From positions 328,755-392,754 of the forward strand of contig OZ241752.1 of assembly GCA_965201155.1 (NCBI GenBank): a DNA stretch of 64,000 nt, given 5' to 3'. The notes below the pieces were generated by a model. It ran no database searches. It saw only the letters and a program-made list of their open reading frames with translations, and was not told where the DNA came from. This DNA comes from Alphaproteobacteria bacterium. Its GTDB lineage: Bacteria > Pseudomonadota > Alphaproteobacteria > UBA7887. Shown here one piece after another: positions 21,223 through 21,570 of this stretch; the stretch's first letter is position 1; the number at the start of each line of letters is the position of its first letter. The position numbers and the translations under genes are program-made.

Positions 21223-21570
21223 ACCAGAGAGATATTCCGTGAAATCGAGAGACAGGAAGACAATCTTCTGAAATGGGCAACGGTAAACAGAGCAATATTC
21301 ACGACGCCGAGACCGGAGGAAGGGGCGTTTGTGGCAAGGATATACAAAGTCCCCCACTTCCAGGCAAACATTGAGAAAAAGAAGCTCGTCCGAGGCGGGA
21401 ATGTCGCGGATCCGTTCGTCGTCGCTAAGGCGGCCGTAATGGAAATGCCGGTGGTAACCGTCGAAAAATATCGCCCCAATGCTGCCAAGGTCCCCAACAT
21501 CTGCCAGCATTTCGGTGTGCCCTGCCTCAGCTTCGAAGAATTCATGCAGCACGAGGGCTGGCGATTTTGA
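21223..21570 (+). pseudogene. N-terminally truncated DUF4411/PIN-like family gene remnant (low-GC), cut by IS copy 1
   Basis: The ~115-aa reading frame continues out of the IS end and terminates ...DPFVVAKAAVMEMPVVTVEKYRPNAAKVPNICQHFGVPCLSFEEFMQHEGWRF. This resembles the C-terminal half of DUF4411 PIN-like proteins as I recall them (from memory, not searched). GC is ~50% against ~67% background. No start codon or N-terminal ~40 aa are present. Confidence 0.4.

Follow-up and report, generated by a model that had tools for sequence, protein, structure and literature searches.

The window analysed here, a stretch of 64,000 nucleotides from an alphaproteobacterium, carries at 21215-21570 (+) the 3′ remnant of a gene for a VapC52-like PIN toxin of the DUF4411 family. 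The remnant was delimited by its match to Pfam PF14367, by alignments with homologues, by the limits of DNA homology and by its similarity to PDB entry 9vzy_D. It consists of the last two nucleotides of codon 38, codons 39-155 and a TGA stop codon. On its upstream side lies an insertion sequence of the IS5 family (IS copy 1, 19931-21214, −, 1284 nt), which was identified by inverted-repeat analysis and is 97.6% identical in blastn to a second copy (IS copy 2, 24451-25733, +, 1283 nt). The latter is inverted relative to copy 1 and encodes an intact transposase of 354 aa. The stop codon of the remnant is 11 nt away from the convergent stop codon of a core gene for an FMN-dependent dehydrogenase (FMN_dh, 21582-22760, −). 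Further along are phaZ (22821-24038), a 5′ stump of mazF/pemK (24040-24157, −) and the gene mazE/pemI (24155-24427, −), before IS copy 2 bounds the 3.2-kb inter-IS segment on its far side. A gene with three Sel1-type repeats of 108 nt each (19414-19930, +; Pfam Sel1, E = 6.7e-36) adjoins the outer end of IS copy 1. The region 18.5-26.5 kb contains no Rfam matches.

The 115-aa translation of the remnant matched PF14367 (DUF4411) with E = 1.3e-22 and a score of 80.7 bits, at a gathering cut-off of 23.5. The match extended over profile positions 41-159 of 159. The preliminary description had proposed an N-terminally truncated DUF4411 PIN-like gene abutting an IS end, and this reading is borne out by the strong profile match and by the missing N-terminus with Asp6. 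A search of 5.8 billion proteins yielded 82 homologues at E ≤ 1e-15, the best of which was 82% identical. Nearly all of them are 152-157 aa long and share the conserved N-terminus M-x-Y-V-F-D-T. A recurrent short class of about 115 aa was absent from the homologues, the shorter entries being heterogeneous miscalls or contig-end fragments; the 115-aa form is not a complete protein with a start of its own. Both the protein homology and the DNA homology to the nearest genes (80% for locus L011, 76% for locus L001) begin at 21215, and the DNA homology ends at the TGA. The native gene DNA starts there, with a breakpoint between 21214 and 21215 on the first base past the inverted-repeat tip of the IS, which is 8 nt earlier than the start at 21223 assumed before. 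HMM and tblastn alignments that reached into the IS did so by two chance identities only. The segment had also been called the C-terminal half of such a protein. In fact only about a quarter is missing, namely 37 of approximately 155 residues, and three of the four acidic residues are present.

As was seen earlier, the reading frame runs out of the IS terminus. The corresponding entry in the ORF list begins with a GTG that belongs to the IS, comprises 185 codons (21013-21570, +) and terminates in ...KVPNICQHFGVPCLSFEEFMQHEGWRF (also given as ...NICQHFGVPCLSFEEFMQHEGWRF), followed by the stop codon. The IS contributes the first 67 codons, which run antisense to the 5′ region of the transposase gene, and the whole ORF is a mechanical by-product of the junction and not a gene. 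The remnant itself has no start codon of its own ahead of the first ATG, which encodes the internal Met at remnant residue 74; here, too, the earlier observation was correct. A publicly annotated gene for a 79-aa protein (P0006; 99% identity over 69% of the query) is on one contig with that for P0085, a protein 100% identical to the FMN-dependent dehydrogenase. This contig is apparently the source contig of the window, and P0006 appears to represent this very locus, annotated from an internal GTG at 21331. This ORF (21331-21570, +) is a miscalled fragment of a pseudogene. The junction between IS and remnant recurs base for base in the independent short-read contig L087, which was obtained from three samples, and consequently was not created by the assembly of the window. 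An apparent variant of the remnant at the end of contig L088 (positions 2914-2936) turned out to be the Illumina adapter AGATCGGAAGAGCGTCGTGTAGG, an assembly artefact.

The opposite strand also contains long ORFs, at 21192-21545 and 21220-21633 (117 and 137 aa), and in contig L087 gene calling picked one of them as a gene of 120 aa. That the true gene is an antisense one and the similarity to DUF4411 incidental is hardly conceivable. The antisense ORFs are without Pfam matches and GC-rich DNA commonly harbours long antisense ORFs, whereas the plus strand combines its E-value of 1.3e-22 with 82% identity to real proteins.

In an alignment of 66 family members the residues D6, F22, W26, E43, E47, D103 and E121 were invariant (numbering of P0001, the closest full-length homologue). 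D6, F22 and W26 are lost from the remnant, which starts within codon 38, while every family-invariant residue of the covered part is kept. With respect to the acidic active-site residues of the family, D6, E43/E47, D103 and E121, the remnant has the last three but not D6. The AF2 model of P0001 (pLDDT 93.7) shows the elements β1 (residues 3-5), α1 (7-16), α2 (23-35) and β2 (38-41). The remnant begins at β2 and lacks β1, α1 and α2, which occupy residues 1-37, so that it does not encode a complete PIN fold. When the P0001 model was compared with the PDB, all top matches were VapC PIN toxins. Canonical members such as Rv0301 (3H87) and Shigella VapC (3TND) superposed with the full-length model at TM-scores of 0.5-0.67 and a probability of 1.0. 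They differ from it by a sequence identity of only 12-18%, by the extra C-terminal helix of the DUF4411 homologue and by the antitoxin, which is a 380-aa HTH-peptidase protein in the DUF4411 systems and a small VapB in the canonical ones. The remnant aligned with residues 51-162 of the VapC52 chain 9vzy_D (E = 6.4e-10), and the family profile matched the same chain with E = 2.3e-29. One DUF4411 protein of 127 aa (P0048) possesses the N-terminal Asp and seemingly lacks α1-α2.

The 117 complete codons that are left of the gene form an open frame, conserved positions show no decay, and the score of 80.7 bits over 119 profile positions is similar in density to the 120.6 bits over 159 positions of an intact homologue.

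Intact relatives of the remnant were found in a constant genetic context. Among the 80 loci from species-representative genomes that were examined (L007-L086), a gene for an HTH-IrrE/M78 protein is situated directly upstream of the DUF4411 gene in 79, the 80th being cut by a contig end, and the N-terminus of the toxin is present in 77. All six metagenomic loci (L001-L006) likewise have a gene for a 378-380-aa protein with HTH and Peptidase_M78/IrrE domains immediately upstream, often with an overlap of 4 nt. The genomes with this pair include Alphaproteobacteria, Acidobacteriota, Nitrospinales, Chloroflexota and Latescibacterota. A wider count of vapBC52-type pairs, defined by an M78 protein of about 380 aa and a DUF4411 protein of about 155 aa, gave at least 482 confirmed cases among the 600 pattern matches listed, spread over many phyla. 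The pairs are usually bare two-gene cassettes between housekeeping genes. A protein of 486 aa (P0321) matches both PF14367 and PF06114; it is perhaps a fused antitoxin-toxin or a read-through call. In the 2023 release of PADLOC, no model matched DUF4411, and the models matched by the partner protein, capP and RmrA among them, were all of a generic IrrE type.

The family has one characterised member. PDB entry 9VZY is deposited as a complex of an 'HTH cro/C1-type domain-containing protein' and a 'DUF4411 family protein', and 9VZZ as the toxin alone; the two were identified as VapBC52 and VapC52 D6A of Mycobacterium tuberculosis (Singh et al. 2026, NAR, PMC13273310). The PIN RNase VapC52 cleaves tRNAs, those of phage D29 included, and is bound by VapB52 at a ratio of 1:2 (VapB52 to VapC52) via the N-terminal domain of the antitoxin (PMC13273310). 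Once its IrrE-type peptidase has been activated by single-stranded DNA, VapB52 cleaves off its own N-terminal domain, and the module provides phage resistance in M. smegmatis (PMC13273310). The PIN residues mutated in that study were D6, E48, D99 and E117, and the D6A variant was catalytically dead (PMC13273310). Well before, DUF4411.1 proteins had been predicted to be toxins that work together with HTH and DUF955 domains (Matelska et al. 2017, PMC5499597). The partner of the closest relative of the remnant aligned with VapB52 (9vzy_A) over residues 10-370 (E = 1.2e-25), that is, with homology over the full length, and the FR motif, the HExxH motif and the switch-loop Cys were in register. By homology with VapBC52, the antitoxin of an intact module would neutralise a toxin dimer with its N-terminal domain, and the ssDNA-activated IrrE-type peptidase would cut off that domain and free the PIN toxin to cleave tRNAs.

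The counterparts that a functional module requires were sought in the window. The DNA upstream of the remnant is that of the IS, and the M78 antitoxin gene of the two-gene module is missing from this position. With six full-length homologues as queries, tblastn found no match to toxin residues 1-37 in the 64-kb window, and three partner proteins gave no match to an M78 partner either (E > 0.4). Moreover, the source contig is unrepresented among the best 120 homologues of the partner (≥57% identity). The 5′ part of the toxin gene and the antitoxin gene could survive beside another IS copy outside the window.

Several features might be taken to mean that the remnant is still expressed and has a role, either as the 185-aa IS fusion or as the 79-aa ORF, for instance by binding VapB52-like antitoxins or RNA as a catalytically dead PIN fragment. 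The open frame continues through the junction to a GTG start within the IS, no conserved residue has changed in the part that is left, and gene callers annotate an ORF (P0006). Outward transcription is a known property of IS5-family elements. A sigma-70-like promoter was, however, not found between 20900 and 21700, and a polypeptide deprived of β1, which is the central strand of the PIN sheet, of α1, α2 and of Asp6 is unlikely to fold stably. In addition, a cognate antitoxin is absent from the window and, as far as the source contig is concerned, from the best 120 partner homologues, and no recurrent class of short homologues exists. A role for an expressed remnant is for these reasons very unlikely, and we infer that the remnant is unexpressed.

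The structure of the two IS copies reveals how the truncation relates to the element. The transposase of copy 2 matched NCBIfam NF033581 (E = 2e-81, 273.5 bits, cut-off 140) as well as the Pfam families DDE_Tnp_1 and DUF772, and that of copy 1 is frameshifted by an insertion of 1 nt near 20384. The terminal inverted repeats are 16 nt long and agree at 14 of 16 positions (GGGAGGCTCTC...; the ends are given as GGGAGGCTCTCAAAAT and GGGAGGCTCTCGTAAT). A megablast search against plasmids produced no match from which the element could be named. The IRL tip of copy 1 at 21214 coincides with the truncation point of the toxin gene. Between the two copies 31 differences were counted, and these are distributed very unevenly: 25 fall in the IRL-proximal 174 nt of copy 1 beside the remnant (about 14% divergence), six in the next 656 nt (about 1%) and none in the last 453 nt. 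Such a mosaic has a probability of about 1e-6 if differences are spread uniformly. The stretch of identical bases common to both copies measures 453-455. The flanking sequences are ...GTACA-IS1-TTATC... and ...ATTAT-IS2-TGCAA..., and a target-site duplication of 2-9 bp was detected neither for either copy nor for the composite nor for an inversion-restored pairing of the four flanks. The missing duplications and the mosaic point to copy 1 as a recombinant IS; gene conversion between the copies could also yield the mosaic. Since duplications are absent and the mosaic copy 1 adjoins an unrelated truncated gene, the IS copies did not simply land at their present positions, and a later rearrangement or deletion is required.

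The same data bear on the question whether the toxin fragment arrived already attached to an IS end from another replicon or genome, which would imply no former module at this site. IS copy 1 is 99-100% identical to copy 2 except in the 174 nt that adjoin the fragment, where the divergence is about 14%, so this end may differ in origin; the lack of target-site duplications and a GC content of 52% in a window of 64% fit an import as well. Against this, the DUF4411 homology reaches precisely to the stop codon, which is 11 nt away from that of a convergent core gene, and the only other IS end available for co-mobilisation is 3.2 kb away and would take in FMN_dh together with its ancestral linkage to ubiD. 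An origin in place needs nothing extra, given that vapBC52-type modules elsewhere are bare cassettes between core genes. We consider an import improbable, and prefer the decay of a module that once resided next to FMN_dh.

The base composition of the remnant differs from that of its surroundings to a smaller extent than previously described. Its GC content is 52.2% (GC3 63.6%; 21215-21570), compared with a window mean of 63.6% and about 65% in the neighbouring genes. The contrast reported in the preliminary description is real, but the figures of about 50% and about 67% were overstated; with 52% and 64% the gap amounts to about 11-12 points and not 17. Sliding-window values of 49-51% were reached only where the AT-rich IS tip was included. 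DUF4411 genes elsewhere are also poorer in GC than their host loci, by 9-10 points in the two loci L003 and L006 (54.7 vs 64.2% and 51.9 vs 62.0%), which makes the low GC content of the remnant partly a trait of the family and its composition.

Truncated genes also occur in the neighbourhood of the remnant. At the other inner IS end, the mazE/pemI gene formerly described as a pemI remnant is intact: it encodes 90 aa and covers positions 4-87 of 87 of NCBIfam NF052488, with a score below the curated cut-off. The remnant at this end is the toxin gene mazF/pemK, of which the first approximately 34 codons are left (PF02452, E = 1.3e-7, profile positions 1-34 of 109). The stump follows directly after mazE and reads MQRGENWLVSLDPTTGHEQRGTRPVVIVH, a stop (TAA, in frame, codon 30) and then RFNS...; it extends as far as the start of phaZ. 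The Sel1-repeat gene at the outer end of IS copy 1 contains an in-frame TAG (19621-19623) in place of the Tyr codon expected from the repeat consensus, and its 3′ end has been removed by the IS. It is a second pseudogene at IS copy 1, unrelated to the toxin.

Comparison with a relative, locus L090 (75-85% protein identity), clarified the history of the inter-IS segment. In L090 the gene order runs from FMN_dh leftwards to ubiA and rightwards to ubiD, pmbA and on to lpxK. Both L090 and the window keep the synteny of FMN_dh with ubiD, pmbA, the inositol phosphatase gene, msbA, kdtA and lpxK (21582-33689 in the window). The series from ubiD to lpxK is located at 25.9-33.7 kb of the window, and the divergent orientation of FMN_dh is retained, with phaZ, mazE, the mazF stump and IS copy 2 intervening between FMN_dh and ubiD. 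To the left of FMN_dh the synteny with L090 stops exactly at the DUF4411 remnant, and the genes ubiA, apbE and dctP, which are on that other side of FMN_dh in L090, are absent from the window. An inverted block or a transposon cargo between the two IS copies was considered and discarded, as FMN_dh and ubiD are oriented as in L090 and a fitting target-site duplication is lacking. The linkage of FMN_dh to ubiD is ancestral, and the inter-IS segment is for that reason not one foreign island. Of the proposal that the IS pair had landed in a former toxin-antitoxin or defence island of foreign origin, the two TA-type remnants at the inner IS ends hold up, and the foreign island gives way to the ancestral linkage of FMN_dh with ubiD-pmbA. 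Two separate TA-type modules flanked core genes, and both are now without their toxins.

Taken together, we regard the segment with a probability of roughly 0.9 as a non-functional pseudogene: an IS5-family element broke the toxin gene of a vapBC52-type module, and its 3′ three-quarters are left. The element would have inserted within codon 38 and thereby killed the toxin. Subsequently, recombination between directly oriented IS copies, the other one being located in the Sel1-repeat gene, or an IS-mediated adjacent deletion would have removed 37 codons, among them the one for the catalytic Asp6, together with the promoter and the complete antitoxin gene, and would have fused the junction to the Sel1-repeat gene. 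One of these two processes, IS-IS recombination or IS-mediated adjacent deletion, is the most likely cause of the loss. From the logic of TA systems we infer the order of events: the toxin was probably inactivated first, so that the loss of the antitoxin was tolerated.

The undecayed codons and the 453-455 identical IS bases suggest that the truncation is recent. Judged from the sequence, continued selection on the remaining codons would explain the lack of decay equally well. The latter would apply if the chimera of 67 IS residues and a VapC52 domain without Asp6 were expressed and retained for binding VapB52-type antitoxins or tRNA. Towards incoming vapBC52 modules such a chimera would be dominant-negative or serve as an anti-addiction factor, and the preserved residues in the 117 codons would then reflect selection and not a recent truncation. 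The chance that this is the case is very slim. We retain the recently truncated pseudogene as the explanation of the locus.

In comparison with M. tuberculosis VapC52 (9VZY, 9VZZ; PMC13273310), the remnant belongs to the same DUF4411 family and has counterparts of E48, D99 and E117. The intact relatives of the remnant share the operon of VapBC52, with an upstream gene for an HTH-IrrE antitoxin that has the FR motif, HExxH and the switch-loop Cys. Unlike VapC52, the remnant comprises codons 38-155 only and is devoid of Asp6, β1, α1, α2 and an antitoxin gene, and from these losses no activity would be expected. The hosts differ as well, one being an alphaproteobacterium and the other an actinobacterium. 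By its sequence the remnant belongs to the DUF4411.1 cluster (Matelska et al. 2017, PMC5499597), the genes of which follow fused HTH-DUF955 genes (COG2856/ImmA). Its members are full single-domain proteins with four acidic residues, in contrast to the remnant with three and no partner gene.

The locus further resembles IS-disrupted toxin pseudogenes and decaying chromosomal TA loci, in which inactivation of the toxin by an IS is followed by a flanking deletion. At a distance of 2.5 kb there is another such case, with mazE intact and about 34 codons of mazF. At the DUF4411 locus the antitoxin has been lost entirely, which would be tolerable only because the toxin was already dead. As a toxin pseudogene generated by an IS, in a family with VapBC52 as characterised member, the remnant is ordinary, and its importance beyond annotation is small. 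In the public annotation, the 79-aa 'gene' ought to be marked as a fragment of a vapC52-like toxin pseudogene. The locus illustrates how chromosomal TA and defence modules decay toxin-first under IS activity, with DUF4411 and MazF stumps within 3 kb of each other. Modules of the vapBC52 type, of which that from M. tuberculosis is the only one characterised (in 2026), occur widely as two-gene cassettes in Alphaproteobacteria and in many other phyla.
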